A stretch of DNA of 64,000 nt, from the NCBI GenBank assembly GCA_964345075.1, contig CAYFPS010000011.1, positions 13,156-77,155 of the forward strand. Reading direction: 5' to 3'. Each line of letters starts with the position of its first letter. The stretch's first letter is position 1. The position numbers were made by a program, and so were the translations under genes. The notes below the pieces were generated by a model. That model searched no databases and was not told where the DNA came from. It was given only the letters and a program-made list of their open reading frames with translations. The stretch is from an uncultured Bacteroidaceae bacterium (GTDB lineage: Bacteria > CAIWAD01). Below are positions 1-64,000 of the stretch, in pieces.

Positions 1-1316
1 TTCAGCTGACAGGCTCCAACATTGCCAATGTGAACACCGAGGGCTACTCGCGCCAGCGTCTGGATCTGGCCTCCCGTGCCGGGCAGCGGCTGGGCGGGAT
101 CGGTGCAGGTGTCGAGCCCGTGGCTGTCAGACGTCTGCGCATGGAGAGTTTCGATCGCAGCTTCCGTAGCGAGCAATCAGGGCTGGGCATGGCCAATATG
201 CGCGACCTGCATCTGGCTGGCCTTGAATCCGTGATGGGCGAACCCGGCAGCTCTGGTCTGGGTGATGCCCTAAATGCCTTCTGGACAGCCTGGAGCGATC
301 TTTCCAACGAACCCACCGAGTCTTCCTATCGCCAGACCGTGATCGAGGCGGGTCATCAGCTGGCGGGACGCTTTCACCAGTTGAATGGACAGATTGCCGC
401 CCAGCAGCAGGACATCAATAACGAAGTGGAACGCACCGGTTCCGAAATCAACCGTCTGGCCACTTCCATCGCTGACTTGAACCAAGCCATTCGACAGTCG
501 GAACTGGCCGGAGATTCGGCTGCGGATCTTCATGACCAGCGTGATCTGCTGGTGGATGAGCTTAGCATGCTGGTGGATCTGGATGCCGCCGAAGACGAGC
601 AGGGGACCTTTCGCGTCTGGGTAGGCGGACGGGCCCTGGTTGATGGCAACCATGTATCACAGGTTGAAACTTCTACAAGCACGGATGAAGCCGGCACTGT
701 GCGCACCGAACTTCTCTGGACCGATACCGGCAGTCTGCTGCGAACTCCTTCCGGTGAGCTGGCCGGCCTCTATGATGTGCGCGATCGCGTGCTGGCCGAG
801 CGACTTGTTCAGCTGGATGAGCTGGCTGATGCGCTTGTGAGACAAGTCAACGAACTGCACGCGGAAGGCTACGATCTGAATGGAAATTCGGGTGTGGCCT
901 TTTTCGATGCAGGTAGTGGTGGCGCCGCCGGGATCGCCGTGCGTGCGCTGCTATTGGAGGATCCCGACCGCCTGGCAGCCAGCGTGGATGGGGGAAGCGG
1001 CAATGGCGACCAGGCTGCCCGCATTGCCGAACTGGCCAGTCAGGGGCTGGATGCCTTAAGCGGGCATAGTCTTGAGGAAGCCTGGAGTCTGATGGTTAGT
1101 GCGACGGGTGCAGAACGCCGCAGTGCCAGTCTTGAATTTGAAGCGCAGCAGAGTTTCGTCAGCAACCTGGACAGCCGCCGGCAAGCCGTTAGCGGTGTGA
1201 ATCTGGATGAGGAACTGACTCTGATGATGAGTCAGGAACAGGCCTATGCCGCCGCTGCCCGAGTGGTTTCGGTGGCGGATGAACTGATGCAGACCGTGCT
1301 TGGACTCGTCAGCTAG
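1..1316 (+). CDS. flgK: Flagellar hook-associated protein 1 FlgK (5' end lies outside the window)
   Basis: The reading frame is open from base 3. Upstream of the GTG at 30 it reads QLTGSNIANVNTEGYSRQRL, the conserved FlgK N-terminal helix motif. The C-terminal region (..QEQAYAAAARVVSVADELMQTVLGLVS) is flagellar-rod/hook family-like. Confidence 0.85.
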   Translation, partial: QLTGSNIANVNTEGYSRQRLDLASRAGQRLGGIGAGVEPVAVRRLRMESFDRSFRSEQSGLGMANMRDLHLAGLESVMGEPGSSGLGDALNAFWTAWSDLSNEPTESSYRQTVIEAGHQLAGRFHQLNGQIAAQQQDINNEVERTGSEINRLATSIADLNQAIRQSELAGDSAADLHDQRDLLVDELSMLVDLDAAEDEQGTFRVWVGGRALVDGNHVSQVETSTSTDEAGTVRTELLWTDTGSLLRTPSGELAGLYDVRDRVLAERLVQLDELADALVRQVNELHAEGYDLNGNSGVAFFDAGSGGAAGIAVRALLLEDPDRLAASVDGGSGNGDQAARIAELASQGLDALSGHSLEEAWSLMVSATGAERRSASLEFEAQQSFVSNLDSRRQAVSGVNLDEELTLMMSQEQAYAAAARVVSVADELMQTVLGLVS

Positions 1317-1325
1317 GAGGCGATC

Positions 1326-2249
1326 ATGCGTGTTACAGATCAATCTCGCATCAATATGAGCCTGCTGAACATCGAGCGTCGCTCAAGAAGCTTCGCCGAT
1401 GCCCAGCGCCAGGTCAGCACCGGCTACCGTGTGCAGAAGGCTTCCGACGATCCGGCAGCCAGTGCGCGCATTGTGAAGTTGCGCGGTGCCATGGCCCGCA
1501 ATGTGCAGTTCCAGCGCAACATGGATACGGCTCGAATACGACTGGGTCACGCAGAGCTCAGTCTTTCCCGGGTCAGCGATCAGCTGGATGAAGTCCGCGC
1601 CTTTGCCGTACAGGCCGCAACGGATACTTACACGCCTGAGGACCGCATGCTGCTGGCCGATGAAATCGATCAGCTGCTGGAAAGCCTTGTTTCCGAAGGC
1701 AACCGGCGCTTTCTGGGGAACAGCCTTTACGCAGGCAGCCGCGTGGATGGCGATGCCTTCGCTGTAACACGAGATGATGCTGGTCAGATTGTTTCCGTAA
1801 TGCCCACGGTCAGTGGCGCTCCCGGCAGCATTAACATTCAGCTGGATGAAAATGAAAGCGTCGAAGTTTCCTTTGCTGGCCGGGATGTCTTTCAGGGTGG
1901 CGAGCCGGGCGGGGATGAAGATCTCTTTCGTGTGCTGATCGACCTGCGGGACGGACTGGCCGCAGGCAGTTCGGAAGCACCGGAAGTGGCGCTTGAATAC
2001 ATCGATGCCGCCATTTCAAACGTGAACAGTGCTCGAGCTGCTCTTGGTACCCGTATGAACCGTGTGGAGCAGGTAGAAATCCAGCTCTTTGCCCGGGAAG
2101 AGACCCTTACCGAGAACCTCTCCGTGGAAGAGGATGCGGATCTGGCCGAAGCGGTGATGAAGCTCAACCTCGAGCAGGTTGGCTATCAGGCGGCCCTGCA
2201 GTCTGTAACACAGCTGATGAGTACCAACCTGCTGCAGTTCCTGAGCTGA
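1326..2249 (+). CDS. flgL: Flagellar hook-associated protein 3 FlgL (flagellin-like)
   Basis: 307 aa. Flagellin-type N- and C-terminal helices (TGYRVQKASDDPAASARIVKLR ... LSVEEDADLAEAVMKLNLEQVGYQAALQSVTQL). Immediately follows flgK with an RBS-like GGAGG before the ATG. Confidence 0.8.
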   Translation: MRVTDQSRINMSLLNIERRSRSFADAQRQVSTGYRVQKASDDPAASARIVKLRGAMARNVQFQRNMDTARIRLGHAELSLSRVSDQLDEVRAFAVQAATDTYTPEDRMLLADEIDQLLESLVSEGNRRFLGNSLYAGSRVDGDAFAVTRDDAGQIVSVMPTVSGAPGSINIQLDENESVEVSFAGRDVFQGGEPGGDEDLFRVLIDLRDGLAAGSSEAPEVALEYIDAAISNVNSARAALGTRMNRVEQVEIQLFAREETLTENLSVEEDADLAEAVMKLNLEQVGYQAALQSVTQLMSTNLLQFLS

Positions 2250-5200
2250 TCATTCCACCGAGAAGTATTTGGCTTCTGGATGATGTACCACAATGGCGGA
2301 CGTGCTCTGTTCAGGCTCGATCTGCCATTCTTCACTCAGGCTGCAACCAATGCGTGATACATTCAGCATCTCGGCCAATACGCGCTGATCTTCCAGATGT
2401 GGACAGGCCGGATAACCAAAACTGTAGCGGCTGCCCCGGTAGCCTTGCCTGAGGATCCGGTGCAGGTCGGTGGCATCCTGATCGGCAATGCCCAGATCCT
2501 CACGCATCAGGCGATGGGTGTATTCCGCCAAGGCCTCGGCCGTTTCCACACCCAGTCCATGAACATAGAGGTACTGGCTGTAGGCATCCTGAGACAGCCG
2601 GCGCTGCGCTTCCAGCGTGGCCTGCTGCCCGACGGTCACCCACTGAACACCCAGAACATCAAAGTCTGCTTCATCAACAGATCGAAAGAAGTCGCTGATT
2701 GAGCGCCACGGTGCGTCCAGCTGGCGGGGGAAGTCCAGATGCCACTTCGGTTCTGCGGCATCAGGGCTTTCCCAGATCCAGAGGCGGCGTCCCTCTGACT
2801 TTACAGGATACCAGCCACGTATCACAGCCGGCTTCAGCCAGCCCTTTTCTTCCGCTTCCTGCTTGAGTTCGCTTAAGAGCGGCATGATCGTTTCCTCTTC
2901 GACCTTTCGCCAGGCGGCCTCATCCATTCGGCCACGCTTGAAGCCCCACTCGCCTCTGACAAGGGTCTGCAGATTCAGCCAGGGCCAGATCTTGTTCAGG
3001 GATGGATGCTCCACGCGGTTGCCCCAGAAGGGAGGCCTTAGCAGGCCAGCAGGCTCTGGCAAGCTGTCACCCGGGGCTTTGTCCTTAAGAGGATCCGTGC
3101 TGCTTGTCACACGAACAGGCTCAGTCGCCTGCTCTGTTGTTTGCAGCTCGGCGGGTGCTTGTTCGTCCATCGTGCGTGCAGGTGCAGCTTCGCCGGAGCG
3201 AATAGCCGCCAGCAGACTCAAACCCTCAAAGGCATCACGGGCATAGTAGACATCACCGTGATACAGGTCGCGCAGTTCTCCTTCCACAAAGCGACGATTC
3301 AGCGCCGCACCGCCCAGAATGACGGGCAGCTTGATGTCTTCCGCATTGAAGACATCGAGATTCTCGCGCATCACGAGCGTGGACTTGACCAGCAGGCCAC
3401 TCAGTCCAAGGGCGTGGGGCTTATGCTCGCGAATGCCTTCGATCAGTTTTTCGACCGGCACCTTGATGCCCAGATCGATGACTTCATAGCCATTGTTCCT
3501 GAGCAGAATGGCCACAAGGTTTTTACCGATGTCGTGGACATCACCCCGGACGGTTGCCAGCAGCAGACGGCCGCGGTTCTGCCATTCACCCGAGCTGGCT
3601 TTCTTGATTTCCGGCTCCAGCACACCAACCGCGCGCTTCATGGTTTCGGCGCTCTTCAGAACAAAGGGCAGCTGCAACTTGCCTGCACCAAAAAGATCCC
3701 CCACCTCGCGCATGCCTTCCAGCAGGAACTGATTGATGATTTCGAAGGGGCCACATTCGCTCAAGGCTTCAGCCAGATCGCCCTCAATCCCCGGCGTGCG
3801 GCCCTTGATGATGCGCTGCCTTAAGCGCTCGCCCACGGGCAGCTTTTCAGCCTCGCGCTGTAAGGCGTCTTCACTTGGGCCCTTTGGCATACCGCGCCGT
3901 AACAGAGCAGCCAGCGGATCGCCTTCATCATGATTGCCGGCAATCAGTCTTTCACAGAGCTGGCGCAGTTCTGGATCGATCTCCGAGGGATGCAGAATGC
4001 GTCCGGCATGCAGAATGGCCGCATCGAGGCCGTGTTGCAGGGCCTTGTCCAGAAAGACCGAGTTGAGCACACGCCTGAGTGCCGGTTTAAGTCCGAAGCT
4101 CACATTGCTTAAGCCCAGCATGGTGCGGGCGCCGGGCAGCTCCTGCTTGATGCGTTCAATTGCCTCAAGCGTGTGACAAGCACTGTGCCGGTACTGTGTA
4201 TCACCGGATCCCAGTGTGAATGTCAGGGGGTCGATCAGCATGTCTGAAGGCTTAAGGCCGTACTCGGCAGCAAGATTGACCAGACGATGCGCCACGGCCA
4301 GTTTGCGCTCGACCGAAAGCGCCATGCCTTCTTCGTCGATGCAAAGCGCCACAACCGCGGCACCGTGCTCGCAGCAGAGTTCAAGCAGTTCGCGGGCGCG
4401 CGCTTCGCCGTCTTCCAGATTGATCGAGTTGACAATGGCTCGCCCGCCCAGCAGCTCCAGCGCGATGCGAACCGTTTCCGGATCTGTGGAATCGATCATC
4501 AGGGGCAGGGTGCACTCGCTGCGCAGCCGCTGCAGGTAGGCCTGCATGTCTGCCTTTTCGTCCCGTGATACAGCTGCCACGCAGACATCCAGTACGTGGG
4601 CGCCCTCGCCTTCCTGACTGCGGGCGATTTCAATCAGCTCATCCCAGTTTTCTTCTTCCAAAGCCTTGCGGAACGCACGACTGCCATTGGCATTGGTGCG
4701 TTCGCCAATCAGGAGCGGGCCGGGCTTTTGCTCCAGCGGCGTTGCGTGATACAGGCCGCTGACTGCGTCCTCGGTCTGGGGGCTGCGCCGGGCTGGCTGT
4801 GTGCCACGCTTGCTCAGTTCACGGCAAAGGGCCTCCAGATGAGCTGGCCGTGTGCCACAGCAGCCACCAAGTACTCGTACACCCAGATCCTTGACGAAGC
4901 GCAGCTGCCAGCGGGCGAACTCTTCCGGCTCCAGATCATAGATCATGCGGCCGCCTTCGGTCCTGGGGAGGCCAGCATTGGGCTGAACGCTAATCGGGAA
5001 GGGGCTTCTTCGGGCCAGCACCTGTAGATGTGGCAGCATGGCATCCGGCCCGGTGGCACAGTTGAGGCCGAAGAAAGCGGGCTTTTGACCGGCAAGGGCG
5101 GCCAGAGCAGCCTGCACTTCAGTTCCCAGCAACATTGTACCGGAACTTTCCACCGTCACCTGAATCGCAATCGGCAGGCGGCTCCCCAGTTCTTCCTGTA

Positions 5201-5708: not shown

Positions 5709-5808
5709 GGATTTCCTTTCCCCCGCTGCGGCTGCTCTACATTCGGCGAGAGCTTCCCATATTAACGCATTCCCGCTTGAAGAAGCTCAGATTGCCGAAA
5801 GGAAAGAC

Positions 5809-6756
5809 ATGCTGGTACCTGAACTGATTGCCGGGCGCAAGAAGCCGCTTTTCAGTTTTGAACTGATTCCGCCCAGACGCGGTGGCGGAATGGGTCACGT
5901 GCATGCAGTGATTGAAGCGCTCAAGCCTTTCGACCCTGCCTGGGTGGACGTTACAAATCACGCCGCAGACAGCTGGTTTGAAGAGCGTGAAGACGGTAGC
6001 TGGCACCGGCACATTCTGCGCAAACGTCCCGGCACGCTTGGCTTGTGCGCTGCGATCAAATACCGTTATGGCATCGAAACAGTACCGCACCTGCTCTGCG
6101 TGGGCTTCACCAGAGAAGAGACGGAAGATGCGCTGATTGAGCTCTCCTACCTGGAAATCCACAATGTGCTTGTGATACGCGGTGACCAGACCGACTGGAA
6201 GGATCTGCGTCCGGGCACGCGCAATGAATACGCGCTGGATCTGGTGAACCAGGTTCGCGCCATGAATGAAGGGCGCTTTCTGCATGACATGGCCGAGCGC
6301 AGCCCGACACACTTCAGCGTTGGAGTGGCTGGCTACCCGGAGAAGCACATTGAGGCGCCCAATCTGCAGTACGACCTGAACTGGCTCAAGGCGAAGGTGG
6401 ATGCCGGTGCTGACTGGGTTGTAACACAGATGTGTTTCACAGCTGAAACCTGGCTGGCCTATGAGCGGCGTTGCCGGGAAGCCGATATTCACATTCCGAT
6501 CATCCCCGGGATCAAGCTGCTCAGTCGCCAGCATCAGCTGGCCAGCCTGCCGCGCCACTTTCAGGTGGATCTGCCCGAAGAGCTGGTCTCGGAGTTCATG
6601 GCGGCCAAAACGCGGGAGGCTCGCGAAGAGGTGGGCATTCGTCACGCGGTTGAAGAGTGTCGCAAGCTGCTGGAAGGTGGCGCGCCGGGCTTGCACTTCT
6701 TTGTAACACAGGATGCGGAGCTGGTTGCCAAGGTGATGAAGCGGGTGGGGGTCTGA
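5809..6756 (+). CDS. metF: 5,10-methylenetetrahydrofolate reductase MetF
   Basis: FSFELIPPRRGGG N-terminus. ATG at 5809 preceded by AAAGGAAAG. The track ORF from 5707 is a 5' extension overlapping metH. Confidence 0.8.
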   Translation: MLVPELIAGRKKPLFSFELIPPRRGGGMGHVHAVIEALKPFDPAWVDVTNHAADSWFEEREDGSWHRHILRKRPGTLGLCAAIKYRYGIETVPHLLCVGFTREETEDALIELSYLEIHNVLVIRGDQTDWKDLRPGTRNEYALDLVNQVRAMNEGRFLHDMAERSPTHFSVGVAGYPEKHIEAPNLQYDLNWLKAKVDAGADWVVTQMCFTAETWLAYERRCREADIHIPIIPGIKLLSRQHQLASLPRHFQVDLPEELVSEFMAAKTREAREEVGIRHAVEECRKLLEGGAPGLHFFVTQDAELVAKVMKRVGV

Positions 6757-8975: not shown

Positions 8976-8982
8976 GGGCAGC

Positions 8983-21322: not shown

Positions 21323-21333
21323 AAAGGGGAACC

Positions 21334-37773: not shown

Positions 37774-37857
37774 CGCAGCCTCCATTTTTTTCTTCACTTT
37801 CCGTGTTACACGGGAACGAAGCTGCCTGTTTTTGTGTTCGGCAGACAGGAGGTCTGC

Positions 37858-56629: not shown

Positions 56630-57757
56630 TCATGCACGGATGCTCGCTTCATAGAGCTGGACGTACACAGGAAGGATTTTGTCGATGGCAAAGCGGTCGC
56701 AGGCGCTGTCCCGGGCAGCCCGCGCAATCATGTCGTAATGCCGGGCATCGGAGAGCAGTTCAAGAGCCGCCTGCGCCATCGCCCCAGTATCACCCTTGTC
56801 GCACAAGTAGCTGTTCTGGCCCGAGTCAATCAGCTCCGGCAAACCGCCCACACGGCAGGCAACAACCGGTACACCACAGCTCATCGCCTCCAGCGCGGCC
56901 AGCCCGAAACTTTCCGATTCACTTGGCAGCAGAAAGACGTCGGCAACGTTCATCAGATCGACGATGTTCTCGTTGTTGCCAATGAAGTGGACGCGTGATT
57001 CAAGCTCCAGCTCTCGCACCAGTTCTTTCATGCCGTTGCGCTCAGGCCCCAGACCAGCCAGAATCAGCCGGGCGGGCAGCTTCGCCTGCACATTGGCGAA
57101 GGTTTGTATCACATCCTGAACCCGCTTGACCGGCCGGAAATTGGAAACGTGCAGCAGCAGCTTTTCATCCGGATTGGCGTAACAGCAACGCAAGTCGGCC
57201 AGGCAAAGGGGCCTGAACTCATCGGTATCCACGAAGTTGTGAATCCGTGTGACATTCAGATCCTGGCCAAAGACGCGCAGGGTTTCATCCTTGAGCCAGT
57301 CACTGACGCTTGTGATCGCATCGCTCTGCTTGAGCGTGAATTGTGTCACGGGCAGGTAGCCGGGATCCTGCCCGACCAGAGTGATGTCCGTTCCGTGCAG
57401 GGTAGTGACCAGGGGCAGCCGGTCATCTTCCAGCATGCGACTGGCCATCCAGGCGCTGATTGTGTGCGGAATCGCATAGTGGGCATGGATCAGATCCAGC
57501 CGCTCGCGCTTGTGGATTTCCAGAATCTTGCTGGTCAGTGCCAGCGAATAGGGGGGATATTCAAACAGGGGATAACTGGAAACTTCCACCTGATGAAAGT
57601 GCACGCCCGGATACATGCGATCCAGCCGAAAGGGTTTGCGGTAGCTGATGAAGTGCACCTGATGGCCGATCTTGGCCAGCTCCAGCCCGAGTTCCGTTGC
57701 GACAATGCCGCTTCCACCCTGCGTTGGGTAACAGATGATGCCGATATGCATGCTCAT
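56630..57757 (-). CDS. bshA: Bacillithiol biosynthesis glycosyltransferase BshA (GT4)
   Basis: MHIGIICYPTQGGSGIVATELGLELAKIGHQVHFISY, matching the BshA N-terminus. GT-B fold, with the C-terminal E-x7-E region. Confidence 0.8.
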   Translation of the reverse strand: MSMHIGIICYPTQGGSGIVATELGLELAKIGHQVHFISYRKPFRLDRMYPGVHFHQVEVSSYPLFEYPPYSLALTSKILEIHKRERLDLIHAHYAIPHTISAWMASRMLEDDRLPLVTTLHGTDITLVGQDPGYLPVTQFTLKQSDAITSVSDWLKDETLRVFGQDLNVTRIHNFVDTDEFRPLCLADLRCCYANPDEKLLLHVSNFRPVKRVQDVIQTFANVQAKLPARLILAGLGPERNGMKELVRELELESRVHFIGNNENIVDLMNVADVFLLPSESESFGLAALEAMSCGVPVVACRVGGLPELIDSGQNSYLCDKGDTGAMAQAALELLSDARHYDMIARAARDSACDRFAIDKILPVYVQLYEASIRA

Positions 57758-58473
57758 TGTCCCTCGCCTGCAAAGTGCTGCAGCGGATCTGCAATTTCCA
57801 GCATACCCTCGTGCCAGAAAGCCTCGCCATAGCGCTTGCCGATCAGCTGTCCGTAATACATGGCTCTGGCCTCAATGAAATGCCAGAAATCCGGGGAAGA
57901 AATAGGAGTGAGAGGTTCTGTGCTTTCCGGATTGTAGAACTGACTTTTGTAACACATGGCAGCTTTTCTGCGCACTTCCCACTGGGCCGTGATGTCCACA
58001 ACAAAACTGGGTGTGAACTCGCGTCTGCCGGGGTAGAAAAGGATGCTGCGCGGGCGGAAGTGCTCCTGGGCCGTGTCCACTTTTGCCATGCCCGACAGGT
58101 AGCAGGCCTTGCGCACAAGTTGAGCGGCAGCTTCGTGATCCGGATGGTCATCTCGCTCCCAGGGGGCAAGCACAATTCCGGGCCTGTACCGGCGGATCAT
58201 GCGCACCAGCTCTATTGCCTGATCACGCCCGGCCTCCAGCCTGCCATCACCAAGATCCAGACAATGGCGGAAGTCCAGACCCAGCAGAGCAGAGGCGGCG
58301 CGGCTTTCCTCGGCACGAATCTCCCTGCTGCCGCGGGTTCCCATCTCGCCTGCCGTCAAGTCCACGATGCCGATGCTGTGTCCGGCGGCTTTCATCTTGA
58401 GCAGGGTTCCCGCCGCACAGATCTCCACATCATCGGGATGGGGCCCGAAAGCCAGAACGGTTTGTGTGCTCAT
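57754..58473 (-). CDS. bshB: N-acetyl-alpha-D-glucosaminyl L-malate deacetylase BshB (LmbE/PIG-L family)
   Basis: VLAFGPHPDDVEICAAGTLLK...GIVDLTAGEMG (LmbE zinc-binding HPDDE motif). Confidence 0.8.
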   Translation of the reverse strand: MSTQTVLAFGPHPDDVEICAAGTLLKMKAAGHSIGIVDLTAGEMGTRGSREIRAEESRAASALLGLDFRHCLDLGDGRLEAGRDQAIELVRMIRRYRPGIVLAPWERDDHPDHEAAAQLVRKACYLSGMAKVDTAQEHFRPRSILFYPGRREFTPSFVVDITAQWEVRRKAAMCYKSQFYNPESTEPLTPISSPDFWHFIEARAMYYGQLIGKRYGEAFWHEGMLEIADPLQHFAGEGQ

Positions 58474-59918
58474 GCCTTTATCCCCGCTTCTGTGAGTTCC
58501 CCGTTCGATTCCACAATAAAGCGCTGCTGCTCATGCTTCAGCGGATCAATCTTCTTGAGCAGACGATCCACAAGCCCCAGGCCGCCCATGCGTCCCAGCA
58601 GGGCAAGACTGTTGACCCGCCGCTCCTGCGCACCACGACTTCCATCCTGCCAGATGCCTGCAGAGTGCAGGTCCTTCAGGCCAGCGCGATGTGTAGCCTT
58701 GTGTCGCGCCAGCAGCTGATCGGCAAGCTGTGTTACAAGATCACTGATGCGCCCACTACGCTTTTCCAGATATGCAGCTGATGGATCTGTCAGGTAGGGC
58801 TCAATGACCTTCACGATTGTATCACGGGCGTGTGTGATGGTCTGCATGTCGTGTTCACAAGCTTCTCCGCCAGGGAGTTGCCTTAGAAATTCCACTGACC
58901 ACGGATCACCGGGATGCGGGGCATGCCATGGGTTAAGGCCACGCTCGCTGAATTGGATCACATCGCTGCGTCTGGCCAGCTGCAGGCGCGGGCGCGCAAA
59001 CTCCAGCGGGCGATCCAGCCCCAGCACTTCCCGGGCGGACAAAAGCTGCTGATGATAGGCGCGCTCGGTTGGTCCCAGAATCACGGCGGCTGGCTTAAGC
59101 AAGGCATCCTGCAGCAGGACACGGCCCAGGGCATTTGGACTCAGCTTTTCCGGATCAGGACTCGCCTGCCATTCCTGCATTCGCTGCCGGTTGCCGGCCT
59201 CATCCTCGAGGAACCAGAGCGGGCGATCATCCACCGCAACAGGTGCCTTCATGCCCTTTGCTATCAGCGTGGATGTATCACGGGCAATGGCTTCAGAGAG
59301 TTTATGCCCATGAGCCTTCATCGCTTCGTATACGGGCAGACTGAGTTCGCGAAACTCGGGATCGGAAGGATCGAGCAAAAGCAGCTCGGCCTTCGGTAAA
59401 AGGGTCCGAAGCACTCTGGCAAAGGCCTCTACAAGAGTCGTGCTGCTCGCAGGATTCAAGTGCTGCCTTTCCTGTGGAGCAAGCAGAGATAGAACTGACT
59501 CAAGCAGCTCTGTCTGTTTCAGCCACCAGTCTGCGGAAAGCGCGACCTGCCCCACGCTCCATGAGCCTTCTCTGGGCGCTGCAAGCGGGGCTGTCAAAGG
59601 GTAGCCGGCCGCAGCCGCCTCTTTCCAGTCGTGATCGTTGCTTTCCATCCAGAAGAGGCAGAGGGGGCGTGGCTGTCCAGCGGCTTCCAGCTTGTCGGCC
59701 AGAGCCAGCATGCCAAGCAGCTTCCAGAGTGTTAGCGCCGGACCACCAAAAAGCCCGCACTGCTGTCCGGTCACCAATAGGGGCGTGCCATCAATCAGCC
59801 GCTGCTGGTGTTCAGGCGAAAGGACCCCACCAAAGCGCTTCTGCTGGCGAAGAAGCAGCTCGACCAGCCTTGTATCACGCTGGACATTCTGCTCGCAGGC
59901 TTCCTGCAGGGTCTTCAT
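58470..59918 (-). CDS. bshC: Bacillithiol biosynthesis cysteine-adding enzyme BshC
   Basis: 482 aa. VTGQQCGLFGGPALTLWKLL and FWMESNDHD, which correspond to the TGQQ.GLF.GP / FW...EDHD hallmarks of BshC (YllA). Confidence 0.7.
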   Translation of the reverse strand: MKTLQEACEQNVQRDTRLVELLLRQQKRFGGVLSPEHQQRLIDGTPLLVTGQQCGLFGGPALTLWKLLGMLALADKLEAAGQPRPLCLFWMESNDHDWKEAAAAGYPLTAPLAAPREGSWSVGQVALSADWWLKQTELLESVLSLLAPQERQHLNPASSTTLVEAFARVLRTLLPKAELLLLDPSDPEFRELSLPVYEAMKAHGHKLSEAIARDTSTLIAKGMKAPVAVDDRPLWFLEDEAGNRQRMQEWQASPDPEKLSPNALGRVLLQDALLKPAAVILGPTERAYHQQLLSAREVLGLDRPLEFARPRLQLARRSDVIQFSERGLNPWHAPHPGDPWSVEFLRQLPGGEACEHDMQTITHARDTIVKVIEPYLTDPSAAYLEKRSGRISDLVTQLADQLLARHKATHRAGLKDLHSAGIWQDGSRGAQERRVNSLALLGRMGGLGLVDRLLKKIDPLKHEQQRFIVESNGELTEAGIKA

Positions 59919-60708: not shown

Positions 60709-62715
60709 TCAGGCGGCTGTGTCTTCCAGCTCCTGCAGCAGGGCTTTGAGCCGATCAAGCTTGAAGGGTTTGGCCAGTGCGCGATCCACCTTGTGCTGGC
60801 TCAAGTCTTCCTGCCTTATTTGTGCGCCCCAGCCGCTAACCATGACAATGTGTGCCGCTGAAAGGCCGCGATCGGATTCCGATTGCCTTAGCCGATCGGC
60901 AAACTCCCAGCCATTCATGCCGGGCATGCCCAGATCTGTGAAAATCAGATCCTGTGCTTCACGCTGCCAGATATCCAGCGCCTCCTGAGCAGCTTCCGCG
61001 CTGCTGACTTCGTGTCCCATCATTTTCAGGATGTCACACAGCACATTGCGAACATCGGGTTCGTCGTCCACCACCAGGATTCTGCGGGAACGAAGTCCGC
61101 GAAGAGCCTCCTTCTGGGGCGTGCGCTTTTCAGTGCTTGTTTCAGCCGGTGGCAGATCCAGTGGCAGCGTGATACGAAAGCTGCTTCCGGATCCCAGATG
61201 GCTGGTGGCCTGGAGCTCGCCCTGATGGCGTTGAATGATACCCTGCGCCATGCTGAGCCCCAGTCCGTTTCCGCGCTTGCCTTTTGTTGTAAAGAAGGGA
61301 TCAAAGAGGCGCTCGAGGACTTCCGGCGTCATGCCGTGTCCGCTGTCCTTAACTTCCAGCACTGCACGCTCGTCTTCCGTGATACACGAAATGCCAATTT
61401 CACCCCCGGTTGGCATGGCGTCCAGCGCATTTTGAAAGAGGTTATGCAAAACCTCGCGCAGCTCACTGGCGTTGCCCCTGACCCAGATGTCATTCGCGCC
61501 TTCAAGCGATACGCTGTAGGTGATTCCAAGCCGGTTGGCCCGGTCCTTCCAGATGGGCCGCATCATTTCAATGACTTCACTCATCAACTCGCGCGCGTTG
61601 AGTGGGCTGAAGTCGGTCTCCTGTGTGACACGGCTGAAGTCCTGGATGCGCTTGACAACAGCCGCCCCGTCCAGAGCGCTGCGATGAATCAGATCCAGAC
61701 CACTTCGCAGATCGGGCGCGAGTTCTTCCAGCTGAAGAAGCTCGGTGCGTGCCACAATGGAGCCGAGGACATTGTTGAAATCGTGCGCTACGCCACTGGC
61801 CAACTGACCCATGGCCTTCATCTTTTCCGATTGCACCAGGCTCTTGCGGGTGCGCAAAAGTTCTTCGTTAAGGTCTTTCAAACTTTGGTTGACCTGTGCA
61901 ACTTCCAGGGACCTGGCCTTCAGGCTATTCTGATTCTCGCTAAGCTCTTCATTCAAGCGGGCAAGTTCCCGGTTCCCTTCTTCCAGTTCCTGACGCTGCT
62001 CGGCAAGCTGCCTGTTGGCCACTTGCACTTCGGCCAATCGTCGCAGGTAAGAGTAGACCCAGCCCAGCGGGATTGCGCTAAGCAGAAATCCCATCCAGCC
62101 GAATTGCAGGTAGAGGTAGGCAAGCAGAGCACCCAGATAGAAGAGAATCAGGTTGCTCCAAAGTTCGAAGTAATGCCCTTGACTGAACTGTTTGCGAAAA
62201 GGTGTACCCAATTGCAGGCGGATGGCGAGTGAGATCAGACTCAGATTGACCAGCGTGAAAGCCACGAAGGGCAGGATGAGCATTGGCAGAACCATGGGAT
62301 GGCTCAGGTCGGGCATCTGACCGCTCTTTCCACCCAGCGCATGATAGACCAGATTCGCCGCATTGACGGCCAGTACAGTCTGGCTCACATTGAACAGGCT
62401 GCGATACCAGACGGTCTTTCGCTGCAAGGCGTTGTAGCGCAGGCTGTTGATGGCGACCGCAGGCCCGGCAAAGGGTGCGCCAAAGACCAGGATCAGACAG
62501 TAATTAAGGGCCGAGTTGAGCGTGCTGGTACTTGTGCCTTCACTGCTGGCAACGTGAAAACTGCCGACCCAAAGCAGGATAGCCAGCCAGATGGCATACG
62601 TAAGCCAGGCTTCGCTGCCTGGCTGTGTGGCGAGCAATTGCTGCAGGTTCCAGAAAACGGCCGCGAGGCCTGCCAGAATGGTTAAGCTGACATGAATCAG
62701 GAGGGGCCTGTTCAT
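60709..62715 (-). CDS. Hybrid sensor histidine kinase/response regulator with N-terminal multi-TM sensor domain
   Basis: About 7 TM helices, a coiled coil, HisKA (SGVAHDFNNVLGSI), HATPase (NLFQNALDAM..GLGLSMAQGI), and a C-terminal receiver (ILVVDDEPDV..DLIFTDLGMPGMNGWEF). Confidence 0.85.
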   Translation of the reverse strand: MNRPLLIHVSLTILAGLAAVFWNLQQLLATQPGSEAWLTYAIWLAILLWVGSFHVASSEGTSTSTLNSALNYCLILVFGAPFAGPAVAINSLRYNALQRKTVWYRSLFNVSQTVLAVNAANLVYHALGGKSGQMPDLSHPMVLPMLILPFVAFTLVNLSLISLAIRLQLGTPFRKQFSQGHYFELWSNLILFYLGALLAYLYLQFGWMGFLLSAIPLGWVYSYLRRLAEVQVANRQLAEQRQELEEGNRELARLNEELSENQNSLKARSLEVAQVNQSLKDLNEELLRTRKSLVQSEKMKAMGQLASGVAHDFNNVLGSIVARTELLQLEELAPDLRSGLDLIHRSALDGAAVVKRIQDFSRVTQETDFSPLNARELMSEVIEMMRPIWKDRANRLGITYSVSLEGANDIWVRGNASELREVLHNLFQNALDAMPTGGEIGISCITEDERAVLEVKDSGHGMTPEVLERLFDPFFTTKGKRGNGLGLSMAQGIIQRHQGELQATSHLGSGSSFRITLPLDLPPAETSTEKRTPQKEALRGLRSRRILVVDDEPDVRNVLCDILKMMGHEVSSAEAAQEALDIWQREAQDLIFTDLGMPGMNGWEFADRLRQSESDRGLSAAHIVMVSGWGAQIRQEDLSQHKVDRALAKPFKLDRLKALLQELEDTAA

Positions 62716-63083: not shown

Positions 63084-63335
63084 CGGCCTGAACCGACGCT
63101 ACTATCGGCTAAAGTTCGGAAGTTCTGAAGCTGTTTGCATGCAAAAACATGCACGCTGGAGCTTTTTGCCCCTTTTCCTGCAATGAACTCTTTTTGCCCC
63201 GTCTGATTCTTGACACCCCGCATTTCAGATTTTTCGTGCAGGAATCGAATCCTAAGTTCATCCCATCAGGCCAGACACGGCCAGACTGCCATCAGAACAG
63301 CCGCTTTTGCGAAAAAGCCAATTCCGGAGGTCATC

Positions 63336-63767
63336 ATGCTTGTCAGACATCTGCTGGGCCAGAAAGGCAATGAAGTTCAGACCACGACTCCTGCTGCTAC
63401 CGTGCAGGAAGCCCTCGATGCCATGATCACCCATCGCGTGGGTTCGCTGCTGGTGATGGATCAGGGCACCTTGACCGGCATTGTCACCGAGCGGGATGTT
63501 TTACGCCGCGGCCTGGCTGATGTGCGAAAACTGCGCGAGCAGCAGGTGCATGAGGTGATGAGCACGGATCTGGTGATCGCCACACCCGATGACAGCCTGC
63601 AGTACCTGATGGGTCTGATGACCCGCAACAAGATTCGCCATGTGCCGGTCTTTGAGGATGGTAGCCTCTGCGGTGTGGTCAGTATTGGCGATGTGGTTTT
63701 CGCGCTGGTGGAAGAGCACGCCACGGAAAACCGCTATCTGCGCGACTACATTCAGGGCAGCTATTGA
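63336..63767 (+). CDS. CBS-pair domain protein
   Basis: MLVRHLLGQKGNEVQTT... with two CBS motifs. ATG at 63336 preceded by GGAGG; the track ORF from 63210 is a 5' extension. Confidence 0.75.
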   Translation: MLVRHLLGQKGNEVQTTTPAATVQEALDAMITHRVGSLLVMDQGTLTGIVTERDVLRRGLADVRKLREQQVHEVMSTDLVIATPDDSLQYLMGLMTRNKIRHVPVFEDGSLCGVVSIGDVVFALVEEHATENRYLRDYIQGSY

Positions 63768-64000
63768 TGAAACCTTCAGCCCGCGAGCAGTTTGAACAGG
63801 AGCGCGCGCGGCTTCAGGAGCGCTTGCAGGAGCGGGGAAACCGTAACCTCAAGCGCTTTCTTTCCGTGGATCACGCCTGCTATCAGGATGGCGCGCTTAA
63901 GGCCGGCACCAAGGAACTGTTGGGGCTGGTGGCCAGTCTGGTGCTTCGCTGCGATGATTGCATCAGCTACCATGTGATACAAAGCCACAAGGCCGGTTGG
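63767..64000 (+). CDS. Carboxymuconolactone decarboxylase/AhpD-like protein (3' end lies outside the window)
   Basis: MKPSAREQFEQERARLQERL...LRCDDCISYH with the AhpD-type CxxCxxxH motif. Start overlaps the CBS gene stop (TGATG). Open to the window edge. Confidence 0.6.
   Translation, partial: MKPSAREQFEQERARLQERLQERGNRNLKRFLSVDHACYQDGALKAGTKELLGLVASLVLRCDDCISYHVIQSHKAGW

Follow-up and report, generated by a model that had tools for sequence, protein, structure and literature searches.

The 64 kb window (the whole stretch of DNA analysed, 64,000 nucleotides, from an uncultured bacterium of Delongbacteria type) carries 68 copies of the 8-mer TGTAWCAC, 38 on the forward and 30 on the reverse strand by exact search of both strands, a density of 1.06/kb. 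The form with W=T (TGTATCAC) accounts for 48 of them and that with W=A (TGTAACAC) for 20. This over-representation, described in the initial annotation as about one copy per kb in both orientations, was confirmed to be real and extreme. Dinucleotide-preserving shuffles (n=100) gave a mean of 1.17 and a maximum of 5 copies, and a 3rd-order Markov model expects 2.3 + 1.1 (3.4). Moreover, synonymous-codon shuffles, done per gene with proteins and codon usage held constant, gave 5.4 +/- 2.0 copies (maximum 11) versus the 67 present in coding sequence. All 60 positions listed in the initial annotation match a true copy in the right orientation, 21 of them exactly and the rest within 16 nt; eight copies (1330, 2204, 4746, 11160, 40859, 47182, 47397 and 49130) were missing from its list, and the G+C content, which it had put at roughly 62%, is 58.9%.

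Form and orientation of the word

TGTAWCAC is a discrete, bare and asymmetric 8-mer, the flank information being near 0 except at positions +1 and +2; T occupies +1 in a single copy of the 68, and +2 is G-rich. Variants with one mismatch are barely above chance (78 vs 62 expected). The minor variant TGTCACAC was found 13 times in the window, where 1.6 are expected. The spacing between copies in the window is random, and no hairpin propensity was seen at them (ssDNA MFE of -5.1 vs -5.6 kcal/mol in random windows). As had been suggested, the copies are not confined to repeats or paralogs: only the pair 44475/45801, a repeat within a giant gene, has similar flanks (65%).

The window copies favour neither strand, neither direction relative to transcription and no part of the gene; they are sense to the gene in 34 cases and antisense in 33 and are spread over the gene quintiles as 14/11/13/15/12. 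Orientation counts are also balanced in loci L002 (11/14), L013 (6/9) and L007 (6/5), and stand at 11/19 in L094. The balance of 38 to 30 in the window supports the earlier rejection of a Chi/KOPS-like polar element. Close inverted pairs are limited to one, 47397/47426, which is intragenic with 29 bp between its members, and none acts as a terminator.

Placement in genes

The word is written into genes even where this requires rare codons or alters amino acids. All copies but one lie in genes, and the pooled density is lower in non-coding (0.54/kb) than in coding DNA (1.05/kb), so that there is no intergenic enrichment. The word is not tied to one reading frame. The dominant frames are nnT GTA WCA Cnn (n=24) and nGT GAT ACA (n=23); where the frame would yield a TGA, only the W=A form occurs. 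That frame choice follows peptide tolerance (Val-Ser/Thr, Asp-Thr) held up. Among the peptide contexts able to encode TGTAWCAC, 67/121 (~55%) do so; the fraction reaches 66/106 (62%) in ordinary genes, as opposed to 1/15 where GC3 is >= 0.73. Synonymous opportunities are thus near-saturated and the most codon-biased genes avoided, which speaks for a pressure acting on the DNA itself. The absence of copies from groES, groEL, ahcY and the sigma-54 activator, pointed out before, is correct, and so is the claim that rare codons are forced into genes, since the motif contains 24% of all GTA codons, 23% of ATA, 18% of ACA and 14% of TCA. In addition, otherwise conserved residues are replaced by motif-encoded ones: GDP became GDT and xVGR became AVSR in MetH, GVPx became GVSP in MiaA (in 3/3 motif-bearing genomes) and VVN became VIQ in MutL.

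The sole intergenic copy lies upstream of comM/yifB. A copy in the same orientation is found upstream of comM at L095:9946, its presumed (unaligned) homologue, and no promoter- or terminator-like site was recognized at 37803..37810. The comM/yifB gene is present as first annotated, its open reading frame being 37834-39405 and not 37858-39405. This gene is near-universal among bacteria and is therefore not diagnostic of competence.

Distribution and turnover among relatives

Some related genomes also carry the word in very high numbers; in high-GC relatives it is eroded or absent. In the complete Candidatus Delongbacteria chromosome OY760505.1 two regions 2.4 Mb apart contain 25 copies in 21.9 kb and 30 in 21.5 kb (1.1-1.4/kb), and loci of a sister species contain 11 in 14.3 kb, 8 in 12.4 kb and 20 in 19.6 kb (0.65-1.0/kb). 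A deep relative, L013, whose MutL is 43% identical to that of the window, has 14 copies of TGTATCAC vs about 2 expected (0.7/kb). Three relic copies remain in L009, each at a site common to the window, and in five high-GC relatives the count is about 0. Unrelated bacteria, 895 kb in all, carry the word at chance level (13 copies vs 13.7 expected).

L007, the 14.3 kb locus of this sister species, has 86.4% nucleotide identity to the window. At this distance TGTATCAC sites are unchanged in 9/10 cases and TGTCACAC sites in 4/4, against a baseline for unchanged 8-mers of 0.364 (all) and 0.367 (composition-matched), with P = 7e-4 and 2e-5, whereas the +/-20 bp flanks of the conserved sites diverge at the average rate (0.859 vs 0.864). 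Such conservation over short distances would indicate active maintenance of the word. Across long distances the sites turn over: in 11 orthologues compared with OY760505.1 (MutL 58% identical), one site is common among the 16 of the window and the 13 of that chromosome. Accepted variants differ between close relatives in a dialect-like manner, TGTAACAC being present 20 times in the window vs once in 14 kb of the sister species (86% identical); there, three sites orthologous to TGTAACAC of the window read TGTGACAC. Individual sites are given in Table 1.

Table 1. Positions of TGTAWCAC (TGTATCAC, TGTAACAC) and of the minor variant TGTCACAC in the window, with orientation to the gene and codons (peptide)
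Word	Position	Strand	Gene	Orientation	Codons	Remarks
TGTATCAC	653..660	+	flgK	sense	CAT GTA TCA CAG (HVSQ)	
TGTAACAC	1330..1337	-	flgL	antisense	CGT GTT ACA GAT (RVTD)	
TGTAACAC	1763..1770	+	flgL	sense	GCT GTA ACA CGA (AVTR)	
TGTAACAC	2204..2211	+	flgL	sense	TCT GTA ACA CAG (SVTQ)	
TGTATCAC	2354..2361	-	metH	sense	AAT GTA TCA CGC (NVSR)	
TGTCACAC	3105..3112	+	metH	antisense		
TGTATCAC	3258..3265	-	metH	sense	CTG TAT CAC GGT (LYHG)	found in L009 too
TGTCACAC	4171..4178	-	metH	sense		kept in L007
TGTATCAC	4197..4204	+	metH	antisense	GGT GAT ACA CAG (GDTQ)	GDP in 4 motif-less relatives; kept in L007
TGTATCAC	4565..4572	-	metH	sense	GCT GTA TCA CGG (AVSR)	kept in L007 and L009
TGTATCAC	4746..4753	-	metH	sense	CTG TAT CAC GCA (LYHA)	kept in L007 and L009
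TGTAACAC	6420..6427	+	metF	sense	GTT GTA ACA CAG (VVTQ)	kept in L007
TGTAACAC	6702..6709	+	metF	sense	TTT GTA ACA CAG (FVTQ)	TGTGACGC in L007
TGTAACAC	7833..7840	+	PEMT-family gene	sense	CTT GTA ACA CGC (LVTR)	TCTAACAC in L007
TGTATCAC	9675..9682	-	mutL	antisense	GTG ATA CAG GAG (VIQE)	lost in L007 (TGGATTAC)
TGTCACAC	10450..10457	+	mutL	sense		kept in L007
TGTATCAC	11160..11167	-	mutL	antisense	GTG ATA CAA CTT (VIQL)	kept in L007; VVN/VVT in relatives
TGTATCAC	11416..11423	+	miaA	sense	CAT GTA TCA CCC (HVSP)	kept in L007
TGTAACAC	11806..11813	+	miaA	sense	CCT GTA ACA CCG (PVTP)	TGTGACAC in L007
TGTATCAC	11932..11939	+	miaA	sense	GGT GTA TCA CCT (GVSP)	sole site common with OY760505.1; GVPx/GVAE in motif-less relatives
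TGTCACAC	12139..12146	+	miaA	sense	CTT GTC ACA CAG (LVTQ)	synonymous with same-frame TGTAACAC; kept in L007
TGTAACAC	12234..12241	+	S8 peptidase	sense	CGT GTA ACA CAG (RVTQ)	GTGTGACAC in L007, which is TGTCACAC on the opposite strand
TGTAACAC	12690..12697	+	S8 peptidase	sense	CGT GTA ACA CAG (RVTQ)	L007 change identical to 12234 (GTGTGACAC)
TGTATCAC	13775..13782	-	S8 peptidase	antisense	CGT GAT ACA AGC (RDTS)	kept in L007
TGTATCAC	14302..14309	-	S8 peptidase	antisense	GTG ATA CAA ACG (VIQT)	kept in L007
TGTCACAC	14904..14911	+	alr	sense		kept in L007
TGTATCAC	15255..15262	+	alr	sense	TTG TAT CAC ACC (LYHT)	kept in L007
TGTATCAC	19445..19452	-	nucleotidyl transferase	antisense	GGT GAT ACA CTC (GDTL)	
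TGTATCAC	19561..19568	+	nucleotidyl transferase	sense	TGT ATC ACG AAA (CITK)	
TGTATCAC	19835..19842	-	nucleotidyl transferase	antisense	CGT GAT ACA AGG (RDTR)	
TGTAACAC	20023..20030	-	nucleotidyl transferase	antisense	GTG TTA CAG GAA (VLQE)	
TGTATCAC	20334..20341	-	metK	antisense	GGT GAT ACA CCC (GDTP)	
TGTATCAC	24152..24159	-	hypothetical 647 aa	antisense	GGT GAT ACA AGC (GDTS)	
TGTATCAC	24483..24490	+	hypothetical 647 aa	sense	TAT GTA TCA CAG (YVSQ)	
TGTATCAC	24575..24582	-	hypothetical 647 aa	antisense	CGT GAT ACA ATC (RDTI)	
TGTATCAC	25139..25146	+	hypothetical 422 aa	sense	CTT GTA TCA CAG (LVSQ)	
TGTAACAC	26056..26063	+	ABC ATPase	sense	GCT GTA ACA CGC (AVTR)	
TGTCACAC	26509..26516	+	ABC ATPase	sense	CTT GTC ACA CAG (LVTQ)	
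TGTCACAC	26629..26636	+	ABC ATPase	sense	GTT GTC ACA CAT (VVTH)	
TGTATCAC	26669..26676	-	ABC ATPase	antisense	GTG ATA CAT TTG (VIHL)	
TGTATCAC	27056..27063	-	SDR	antisense	CGT GAT ACA CTG (RDTL)	
TGTATCAC	31634..31641	+	DUF3570	sense	CAT GTA TCA CAG (HVSQ)	
TGTCACAC	31696..31703	-	DUF3570	antisense		
TGTATCAC	31945..31952	+	DUF3570	sense	ATG TAT CAC GAT (MYHD)	
TGTATCAC	32478..32485	+	ApbE	sense	CGT GTA TCA CAG (RVSQ)	
TGTATCAC	35487..35494	-	ABC transporter (membrane + ATPase)	sense	GCT GTA TCA CGG (AVSR)	
TGTATCAC	35941..35948	+	ABC transporter	antisense	CGT GAT ACA ATC (RDTI)	
TGTATCAC	37295..37302	-	ABC transporter	sense	TGT ATC ACC GTC (CITV)	
TGTAACAC	37803..37810	-	intergenic			31 bp upstream of comM start
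TGTATCAC	38162..38169	-	comM	antisense	CGT GAT ACA CTC (RDTL)	
TGTATCAC	38841..38848	+	comM	sense	CTT GTA TCA CGG (LVSR)	
TGTATCAC	39494..39501	+	T9SS-tailed 752 aa	antisense	CGT GAT ACA TCC (RDTS)	
TGTCACAC	40228..40235	-	T9SS-tailed 752 aa	sense	GTT GTC ACA CAC (VVTH)	
TGTATCAC	40485..40492	+	T9SS-tailed 752 aa	antisense	GTG ATA CAG CCC (VIQP)	
TGTAACAC	40711..40718	+	T9SS-tailed 752 aa	antisense	GCG TGT TAC AAC (ACYN)	W=A alone escapes TGA stop in frame
TGTATCAC	40859..40866	+	T9SS-tailed 752 aa	antisense	GGT GAT ACA ACA (GDTT)	
TGTATCAC	41588..41595	+	T9SS-tailed 752 aa	antisense	CGT GAT ACA CGG (RDTR)	
TGTATCAC	44220..44227	+	giant 1957 aa	antisense	TGT GAT ACA GAA (CDTE)	
TGTATCAC	44378..44385	-	giant 1957 aa	sense	CGT GTA TCA CCG (RVSP)	
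TGTATCAC	44475..44482	+	giant 1957 aa	antisense	GGT GAT ACA TAC (GDTY)	internal repeat; flanks 65% identical to 45801
TGTAACAC	45705..45712	+	giant 1957 aa	antisense	CGT GTT ACA GCC (RVTA)	
TGTATCAC	45801..45808	+	giant 1957 aa	antisense	GGT GAT ACA TAC (GDTY)	internal repeat; paralogue of 44475
TGTAACAC	47182..47189	-	giant 1957 aa	sense	TGT AAC ACG GCC (CNTA)	
TGTATCAC	47397..47404	+	giant 1957 aa	antisense	GGT GAT ACA CCG (GDTP)	29 bp from 47426, sole close inverted pair
TGTAACAC	47426..47433	-	giant 1957 aa	sense	GGT GTA ACA CAG (GVTQ)	
TGTATCAC	47561..47568	-	giant 1957 aa	sense	GGT GTA TCA CTG (GVSL)	sole copy with T next
TGTATCAC	49130..49137	+	giant 1679 aa	antisense	GGT GAT ACA ATT (GDTI)	
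TGTAACAC	50754..50761	-	giant 1679 aa	sense	TGT AAC ACG GAT (CNTD)	
TGTAACAC	52380..52387	-	giant 1679 aa	sense	TGT AAC ACC AGC (CNTS)	
TGTCACAC	52799..52806	-	giant 1679 aa	sense		
TGTATCAC	57105..57112	+	bshA	antisense	GTG ATA CAA ACC (VIQT)	
TGTCACAC	57247..57254	-	bshA	sense	AAT GTC ACA CGG (NVTR)	
TGTAACAC	57948..57955	+	bshB	antisense	ATG TGT TAC AAA (MCYK)	
TGTAACAC	58730..58737	-	bshC	sense	CTT GTA ACA CAG (LVTQ)	
TGTATCAC	58818..58825	+	bshC	antisense	CGT GAT ACA ATC (RDTI)	
TGTATCAC	59274..59281	+	bshC	antisense	CGT GAT ACA TCC (RDTS)	
TGTATCAC	59871..59878	+	bshC	antisense	CGT GAT ACA AGG (RDTR)	
TGTCACAC	61032..61039	+	hybrid histidine kinase	antisense		
TGTATCAC	61379..61386	-	hybrid histidine kinase	sense	TGT ATC ACG GAA (CITE)	
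TGTCACAC	61623..61630	-	hybrid histidine kinase	sense	CGT GTC ACA CAG (RVTQ)	
TGTATCAC	63974..63981	-	last ORF (continues beyond window)	antisense	GTG ATA CAA AGC (VIQS)	

Possible function

To our knowledge DNA uptake sequences are so far known only from the relatives of Neisseria and Haemophilus. Our best explanation, tentative and a little short of an even chance, is by analogy with these (DUS/USS): TGTATCAC might be a lineage-specific self-tag spread by biased uptake and recombination, and in the window genome TGTAACAC, the weaker TGTCACAC and a next base other than T would also be accepted. The DNA receptor of a natural-transformation machine, by analogy perhaps a minor pilin belonging to a competence pilus, would bind double-stranded DNA with the 8-mer in either orientation. 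Fragments carrying the motif, from the same or related species, would be taken up in preference to others and enter the chromosome by recombination, a step in which ComM, encoded in the window, could aid branch migration; motif-bearing alleles would for this reason be passed on more often than motif-less ones, a form of molecular drive. The word would accumulate everywhere until halted by protein-coding and codon-usage constraints, and where the machinery was lost the copies would decay. What we infer from the pattern is DNA uptake as such, a receptor for it, and that comEC, dprA, comEA and pilus genes are present.

The site conservation in L007 counts in favour of such a self-tag. Nevertheless, the search for uptake or competence genes, which covered the window and related loci of about 300 kb (only a few percent of one genome), found none besides comM/yifB; this counts against it, as does the fact that no member of Candidatus Delongbacteria is cultured or known as transformable. 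The word may instead be the target of a genome-wide binding or modification system, the alternative raised in the initial annotation, or have a HIP1-like role. Another possibility is binding by a DNA-binding factor of the conserved cellular core. That the 8-mer stays identical at a divergence as deep as that of L013 suits such a core factor no less well than it suits a pilin receptor, which would evolve fast.

Comparison with known uptake sequences

The uptake-signal reading first proposed for this DNA stands in its sequence resemblances, namely about one copy per kb, balanced orientation, tolerance in genes, a word common to relatives, dialects and turnover. It does not stand on intergenic enrichment, terminator-like inverted pairs or an excess of mismatched copies. 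In H. influenzae the frequency of USS in coding DNA is reported to be somewhat below expectation, and intergenic uptake sequences are found as inverted repeats (PMC2346458); the lower non-coding density of TGTAWCAC and its single, intragenic close inverted pair are unlike this and count against a DUS-like reading. Allowing one mismatch raises DUS counts by 15-45% (PMC3630211), and the near-chance number of one-mismatch variants here also counts against it.

On the other side, uptake sequences are reported without orientation bias (PMC2346458), as is the case for TGTAWCAC. A Neisseria genome has about 1,500 DUS copies (PMC2346458) and DUS occupy about 1-2.5% of the genome (PMC3630211), to which the density found here is close. 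The frame use of DUS is limited by an in-frame stop (PMC3630211), and TGTAWCAC is restricted likewise in its TGA frame. Moreover, Simonsiella muelleri has two DUS dialects one A/T transversion apart (PMC3630211), similar to the TGTATCAC/TGTAACAC variation across relatives. The pattern of TGTAWCAC thus resembles that of self-recognition DNA uptake sequences, outside the relatives of Neisseria and Haemophilus.

Abundance and form of the word

The word TGTAWCAC occurs in the 64,000-base window as 68 exact matches, 38 on the forward and 30 on the reverse strand, of which 48 are of the W=T form (TGTATCAC) and 20 of the W=A form (TGTAACAC). Dinucleotide-preserving shuffles of the window gave 1.17 copies with a maximum of 5, and a third-order Markov model predicts 2.3 and 1.1 copies of the two forms for the window. 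A within-gene synonymous-codon shuffle, which preserves each protein and the codon usage of each gene, gave 5.4 +/- 2.0 copies (maximum 11) vs the 67 present in coding sequence. With 68 copies observed and 1.2-5.4 obtained under these three nulls, the over-representation claimed in the initial annotation is borne out; the excess over expectation is 20- to 60-fold, and in an unbiased ranking of all 8-mers of the window the two forms take ranks 1 and 2. The 60 coordinates collected there by eye all correspond to real copies in the orientation stated, with offsets of at most 16 nt, although eight copies had been overlooked. The roughly two copies said to lie in duplicated sequence are one pair (44475/45801) in paralogous sequence, and the G+C content of the window is 58.9% and not about 62%. 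The number of copies per 4 kb has a variance/mean of 1.18, and the gap CV in the window is 1.14, inside the random range of 0.80-1.24, so that the spacing is indistinguishable from random and an even spacing of the DUS (Neisseriaceae DNA uptake sequence) kind is ruled out.

The word is not palindromic, the reverse complement of TGTATCAC being GTGATACA. When the flanks are aligned on it their information is near 0 except at positions +1 and +2, the base after the word being T in only one of 68 copies and the second base often G. Moreover, motif sites fold no better than random windows (mean ssDNA MFE of -5.1 vs -5.6 kcal/mol, 48-nt windows). Since the flanks are uninformative and there is no hairpin propensity, this is a bare word and the core of neither a repeat nor a mobile element. 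A hairpin or structured repeat of the REP, MITE or NTS/SRM type was rejected on the same grounds and on the genic location of 67 of the 68 copies. One-mismatch variants in the window number 78 overall against 62 expected, a small sample, and those enriched are TGTCACAC (13 observed, 1.6 expected), TGTATTAC (7 and 0.6), CGTATCAC (7 and 1.6) and TGTCTCAC (5 and 0.9). The first of them is dispersed, has 3' neighbours of the same kind as those of the word and is, in the main frame, the synonymous GTC version of TGTAACAC.

A further word was noticed in the window. The palindrome CTTAAG has 15 sites vs about 3 expected from a third-order Markov model, often within GCTTAAGC or CGCTTAAGCG, and it is found 0 times in 14 kb and 3 times in 19.6 kb of the sister species and 0-2 times in the loci of other relatives. 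It may be a second, genome-specific, palindromic over-represented word.

Positions of features mentioned in the text
Feature	Sequence	Position (strand)
CTTAAG sites	Window	1055, 2872, 3084, 3820, 4108, 4251, 8287, 14480, 26041, 31236, 32535, 32568, 41814, 59094, 63896
metH and metF	Window	2250-6756
Longest ORF (174 aa)	Window	15610-16134
94-aa ORF	Window	15971-16255
94-aa ORF as called in the sister species	L007	11810-12094
metK and ahcY	Window	20141-22743
1130-aa T9SS-tailed protein	Window	52962-56354 (-)
bshC	Window	58470-59918
SAM-dependent methyltransferase	Window	59918-60670 (-)
Y1_Tnp gene	OY760505.1, L094	11601-12359
Tandem runs of CACAGAGG	L011	2657, 11910, 12239, 12339, 17490, 17698, 21875
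Six CGGATCCG palindromes	L012	14897-15395

Genes, reading frames and coding constraint

About 95% of the window is coding. The genes identified by Pfam include flgK, flgL, metH, metF, metK, ahcY, mutL, miaA, alr, groES, groEL, comM/yifB, bshA, bshB, bshC and a sigma-54 activator, and four proteins (752, 1957, 1679 and 1130 aa) have T9SS sorting tails, the two largest with NIDO domains. Genes hold 67 of the 68 copies (99%), 34 in sense and 33 in antisense, and the counts by gene quintile are flat (14/11/13/15/12), so a bias to gene ends was rejected. Pooled density is 0.54/kb in non-coding vs 1.05/kb in coding DNA, with no intergenic enrichment. The window has a single close inverted pair, which lies within a gene, and the over-representation between genes that is typical of DUS and USS, often in the form of inverted pairs at terminators, was not found; around the copy upstream of comM neither a promoter- nor a terminator-like context was found. 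Because sense equals antisense, both strands and all six frames are used and the quintiles are flat, an RNA-, translation- or peptide-level cause is excluded.

The use of the frames is uneven and follows peptide tolerance. Two frames account for 47 of the 67 genic copies, namely nnT GTA WCA Cnn (x-Val-Ser/Thr-x) with 24 and nGT GAT ACA (Gly/Arg-Asp-Thr) with 23, while frames requiring Cys or Tyr-His are rare and the frame in which GTGATACA makes TGA is occupied by the W=A form only. The window has 121 peptide contexts able to encode the word without protein change and 67 of them (55%) do so; all six of its Cys-Ile/Asn-Thr tripeptides are motif copies, and 24% of its GTA codons and 23% of its ATA codons lie inside the word. 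The DNA-level pressure for the word is very strong. Motif density drops as codon bias rises (Spearman rho -0.43, P = 0.006), compatible contexts being filled in 1 of 15 cases in genes with GC3 of at least 0.73 and in 66 of 106 in the other genes. The high-GC3 genes include groES/EL, ahcY, metK, the sigma-54 activator and the gene of the 1130-aa T9SS protein. This last one (GC3 0.78) has no copy despite seven compatible contexts, and the adjacent genes for the 1957- and 1679-aa proteins have 9/14 and 3/5 of theirs filled; it may be a recent acquisition or be expressed at an unusually high level.

Some further observations concern the genes themselves. Those of the activated methyl cycle cluster, metH and metF being divergent neighbours and metK lying adjacent to ahcY; metH-metF is absent at the corresponding locus of OY760505.1 and present in other relatives. 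The longest ORF at one locus probably is not a gene, because its GC3 is 0.38 and it has no Pfam match, and the 94-aa ORF, which is called in relatives as well, is the better candidate for the conserved gene; the choice between the two touches no motif copy. The sole methyltransferase has generic SAM-dependent domains (Methyltransf_25/11, TehB, TPMT) and not those of DNA methyltransferase families, and it adjoins bshC in the bshA-bshB-bshC cluster. In Chlorobiaceae, a gene responsible for synthesising N-methyl-bacillithiol has been reported (PMC6282198), and by analogy the methyltransferase of the window could be a similar enzyme.

Distribution among relatives

The closest relatives of the window by MutL are Candidatus Delongbacteria (candidate phylum Delongiibacteriota). 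The word was counted in the syntenic mutL regions of these relatives and, for some genomes, in the comM region too.

Copies of the word in loci (L numbers) of related genomes and in unrelated bacteria
Genome (loci)	Identity to window	G+C	Copies
Sister species GCA_046766155.1/275.1/175.1 (L007, L008, L095)	MutL 94%; 86.4% nt	0.58	11/14.3 kb, 8/12.4 kb, 20/19.6 kb
L009	MutL 77%	0.64	3/19.3 kb (0.1 expected)
OY760505.1, complete chromosome (L002, L094)	MutL 58%	0.55-0.57	25/21.9 kb, 30/21.5 kb
L013	MutL 43%	0.51	15/21.8 kb; 14 TGTATCAC vs about 2 expected
L010, L011, L012, L014-L017, L019	MutL 54-58% (L014-L019: ComM 65-67%)	0.69-0.75	1 in about 100 kb
GCA_964568855.1 (L001, L096)	MutL 55%	0.67	2/38 kb
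Unrelated bacteria, comM metagenome scan		various	TGTATCAC 13 in 895 kb (13.7 expected)

The initial annotation would have taken occurrences confined to repeats or paralogs of the window as a refutation, and this is not the case. Two regions of OY760505.1 lying 2.4 Mb apart have 1.14 and 1.39 copies/kb, and the word is genome-wide in at least this other, complete genome. It is present in four lineages, found as relics in two and absent in five or more, being specific to part of Delongiibacteriota and patchy within it. The 7-mer core GTATCAC keeps a residual excess in GCA_964568855.1 (14 vs 1.6-3.9 expected) and in L009 (5 vs 0.8). Orientation is balanced in L002, L007 and L013 and is 11/19 in L094. 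The ComM proteins of the motif-free high-GC genomes are closer to that of the window (65-67% identity) than is the ComM of the motif-rich OY760505.1 (57%), which suggests an old origin of the word followed by repeated loss, transfer of the responsible system being the alternative.

Across the loci of the clade, motif density and base composition vary together, with 0.65-1.4 copies/kb at 51-59% G+C, 0.16/kb at 64% and about 0 at 67-75%. No replacement hyper-abundant word was seen in the loci of the high-GC relatives. The candidate CACAGAGG in L011, from the motif-free, high-GC genome GCA_041675285.1, was discarded as an intergenic tandem octamer repeat; its runs, such as CCACAGAGGCACAGAGGCACAGAG, occupy several intergenic spacers and represent a different, REP-like kind of repeat. 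The candidate CGGATCCG in L012 was likewise discarded, 6 of its 8 sites falling within 500 bp of one gene, as a local repeat and no genome-wide word. In OY760505.1 a Y1_Tnp gene (IS200/IS605 or RAYT-type HUH transposase) with no motif copy lies directly 3' of comM, and it is absent at that position in the window and the sister species.

Turnover and effect on proteins

At short range the window was compared with the sister species in a 14.2-kb nucleotide alignment (86.4% identity). Unchanged in the sister species are 9 of 10 TGTATCAC sites and 4 of 4 TGTCACAC sites, vs a baseline of 0.364 for all 8-mers and 0.367 for composition-matched ones (P = 7e-4; combined 2e-5), and the 20 bp on each side of the sites show an identity of 0.859 vs the average of 0.864. 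Because the sites persist while their flanks diverge at the average rate, the word itself is being actively kept. The TGTAACAC form behaves otherwise: one of its six sites is common to both, and three of the six read TGTGACAC in the sister species, two of these three being TGTCACAC on the opposite strand. This form is almost absent from the sister species, the W=A variant being specific to the genome of the window, and with its sites changed in this way the set of accepted variants has shifted between close relatives.

At longer range, 11 orthologous genes of the window and OY760505.1 carry 16 and 13 sites, respectively, and the only one in common is GGT GTA TCA CCT in miaA. The three TGTATCAC copies of L009 all lie in metH, at sites that the window has as well, and look like relics of an eroded set. 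The effect on proteins was read from a multi-genome codon table with the motif-free relatives as comparison, and the residues at motif sites are either variable or derived. The motif sites of MetH bring derived residues (GDP to GDT, xVGR to AVSR and LY(S/G/P/A) to LYH), MiaA changes from GVPx to GVSP in all three motif-bearing genomes and MutL from VVN to VIQ, whereas at such sites the motif-free relatives agree on another residue. These observations describe a process by which copies keep arising and being preserved wherever proteins tolerate them, which overrides moderate protein constraint and whose copies decay once it has stopped.

What the word may be for

Hyper-abundant oligomers fall into three classes, polar Chi-type motifs, DNA uptake sequences and HIP palindromes (Elhai review, PMC4390886). 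The best explanation for the present word, to which we give a probability just short of even, would be a self-tag similar to the DUS and to the USS of Pasteurellaceae, because its density, balanced orientation, tolerance in genes, sharing within a clade and dialects match those of uptake sequences. DUS number about 1,500 copies per Neisseria genome and uptake sequences have no orientation bias (PMC2346458); DUS occupy about 1-2.5% of the genome, within genes they are constrained by what the peptide tolerates and by one frame containing a stop codon, and Simonsiella muelleri carries side by side in its genome two DUS dialects distinguished by an A/T transversion (PMC3630211). From the observed pattern and evolutionary dynamics of the word we infer uptake itself, a receptor and competence genes. 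A receptor on the DNA-uptake machine would favour DNA bearing the word, the imported fragments would recombine into the chromosome, and word-bearing alleles would gain a transmission advantage until constraints of coding and codon usage halted the gain. The accumulation seen here is compatible with the molecular drive described for uptake sequences (PMC1939737).

Several observations speak against the uptake reading. The sole competence-related gene seen in the sequence examined is comM, which is near-universal in bacteria, and scanning the clade loci examined for N-termini of type IV pilins gave only spurious matches in non-coding frames. Moreover, non-coding DNA is not enriched in the word, terminator-like inverted pairs are lacking and one-mismatch copies are few. 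In addition, the 8-mer stays identical down to a MutL identity of 43%, which a conserved DNA-binding factor inside the cell would explain no less naturally than a pilin receptor.

A word comparable to HIP1, which is GCGATCGC in cyanobacteria, would be held at many sites by selection for a role at the level of the chromosome, for example in nucleoid organisation, or would be created and repaired through methylation-directed short-patch repair as has been proposed for GCGATCGC, with no DNA uptake. We regard this as unlikely, even though much of the pattern agrees with it: the excess falls within the 15- to 300-fold reported for HIP1 (PMC5861425), sites are conserved while flanks diverge, an observation from which selection on HIP1 has been argued, genes and intergenic DNA have similar densities, and the same word extends across deep divergence. 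Its patchiness also recalls HIP words, which are lost or replaced in some lineages (PMC4390886). Nevertheless palindromy is the defining HIP feature and the word lacks it, its positions differ almost wholly at 58% MutL identity, several lineages lost it without a replacement word, and no DNA methyltransferase was seen in the window and the relatives' loci examined. Rather improbable, and somewhat more so, is that the word is the site of an abundant intracellular sequence-specific DNA-binding or processing protein and that selection holds its density, examples being a non-polar Chi analogue restraining a nuclease or defence system and the site of a nucleoid-associated protein. A sharp word almost without mismatched variants suits high-specificity binding, the word is deeply conserved and its sites are conserved too, and avoidance of the most codon-biased, presumably most expressed genes fits a protein that hinders transcription. 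Per-site selection that alters conserved residues at thousands of interchangeable positions is, however, hard to sustain and drive is simpler; the word is dispensable in the close relatives L009 and L010-L012, no candidate protein was identified, and to our knowledge no system requires about 1 site/kb in either orientation inside genes.

Two further explanations have far lower probability. Chi (RecBCD/AddAB) and KOPS/SRS (FtsK/SpoIIIE) are polar, replication-oriented motifs, and as Chi and KOPS are 8-mers too a role of this type can be considered, also since 33 of 55 copies in the two OY760505.1 regions lie on one strand, a non-significant skew toward the leading strand if the origin is assumed at position 1. 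Chi and KOPS show a leading-strand skew of 75-90% and Chi is only few-fold over-represented, well below the excess seen here. In the window the 38/30 split has no switch point along the 64 kb (20/17 and 18/13 in the two halves) and contradicts polarity; the initial annotation had argued against Chi- and KOPS-like elements from the same lack of strand bias, and such a motif is very improbable. Even closer to nil is a by-product without a DNA-level cause, whether codon or dipeptide preference, a dispersed repeat or mobile element, an RNA signal or an assembly or base-calling artefact. The concentration of most copies in two frames, with the recurrent dipeptides VS/VT and DT, could suggest it, but the synonymous-codon shuffle eliminates a codon or dipeptide artefact (5.4 vs 67), the copies use six frames on both strands with sense equal to antisense, and the flanks are unrelated and do not fold. 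An assembly artefact is ruled out because the same excess occurs, with intact reading frames, in independent assemblies from different projects (OY760505.1, GCA_046766155.1/175.1/275.1, ERZ23499048).

The uptake reading can be carried further, with a confidence rather below even. The word would then belong to a DUS system that evolved independently outside Proteobacteria, in a third lineage besides Neisseriaceae and Pasteurellaceae; natural transformation would occur in members of Delongiibacteriota, with TGTATCAC as the mark by which they tell DNA of their own kind. Drive would fill more than half of the synonymous opportunities and overwrite conserved residues, and high-GC lineages would have lost the system repeatedly.

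Novelty and significance

Sequence-specific DNA uptake with a genome-wide tag has been described for two proteobacterial families (PMC1939737, PMC7811141). In the searchable literature, which is incomplete, neither this word nor any motif of Delongiibacteriota resembling an uptake sequence was found to be described; full-text matches for the 8-mers were only primers and unrelated sites, and by title and abstract none of the literature mentioning Delongbacteria concerns competence or repeats. The word combines uptake-sequence hallmarks with an unrelated sequence, a non-proteobacterial uncultured lineage and a genomic placement unlike that of DUS and USS.

An 8-mer as abundant as a DUS is thus present in an uncultured candidate phylum. 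Its close relatives with the word, a variant, relics or none constitute a natural experiment, so that the responsible gene should be findable by comparative genomics as the one whose presence and sequence track the motif. Two questions become addressable in this way, namely which gene recognises such words and whether drive or selection maintains them. If the uptake reading is true, the word would be indirect evidence of natural transformation shaping genomes in an uncultivated lineage. It is also of practical use as a marker in binning and in linking phages and mobile elements to these hosts.

Comparison with known systems

Chi, KOPS and SRS share with the word the octamer length and the fact of being read in double-stranded DNA by a protein machine, but their leading-strand skew is strong and their over-representation only few-fold, whereas the word is unskewed and in 20- to 60-fold excess. 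REP/BIME, the dRS3/NTS of Neisseria and Ssn-related motifs also reach hundreds of copies per genome; they are hairpin-formers of 20-35 nt around genes, unlike a bare 8-mer with no hairpin that is 99% genic. The Ssn/NTS-type repeats, 30-nt hairpins clustered around genes, were rejected as an identity for the word, and the Neisseria NTS also modulates transformation (PMC11893778).

Like the word, HIP1 is an 8-mer that exceeds expectation tens-fold or more, occurs both within genes and between them, has sites conserved more than neutrality predicts and has been lost or replaced in some lineages (PMC5861425, PMC4390886). HIPs are palindromic, mostly GC-rich and tied to orphan methyltransferases, unlike this asymmetric and AT-rich word. 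HIP1 is without an established function.

The USS of Pasteurellaceae, of the types AAGTGCGGT and ACAAGCGGT, have extended AT-rich flanking segments, whereas the flanks of the word are uninformative beyond +1/+2. USS are also biased toward gene termini (PMC2346458), unlike the flat gene quintiles of the word. Both are hyper-abundant, with random-looking spacing and unbiased orientation, are tolerated in coding DNA and have a family-wide core with a variant subtype in a subclade (PMC2346458, PMC1939737).

The DUS of Neisseriaceae, GCCGTCTGAA / ATGCCGTCTGAA and their dialects, are recognised by the minor pilin ComP. The word differs from them in its unrelated sequence, in its length (8 vs 10-12 nt), in being AT-rich in a GC-rich genome, in not being enriched between genes or as inverted pairs and in its very few one-mismatch copies; its host belongs to an uncultured non-proteobacterial candidate phylum, and no ComP-like pilin was seen in the sequence examined. 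Like DUS, it is a short asymmetric word present at about one copy per kb in unbiased orientation and within genes, in frames limited by peptides and stop codons, and like them it is common to related species, has co-existing single-base dialects and is conserved within genomes (PMC3630211, PMC2346458).
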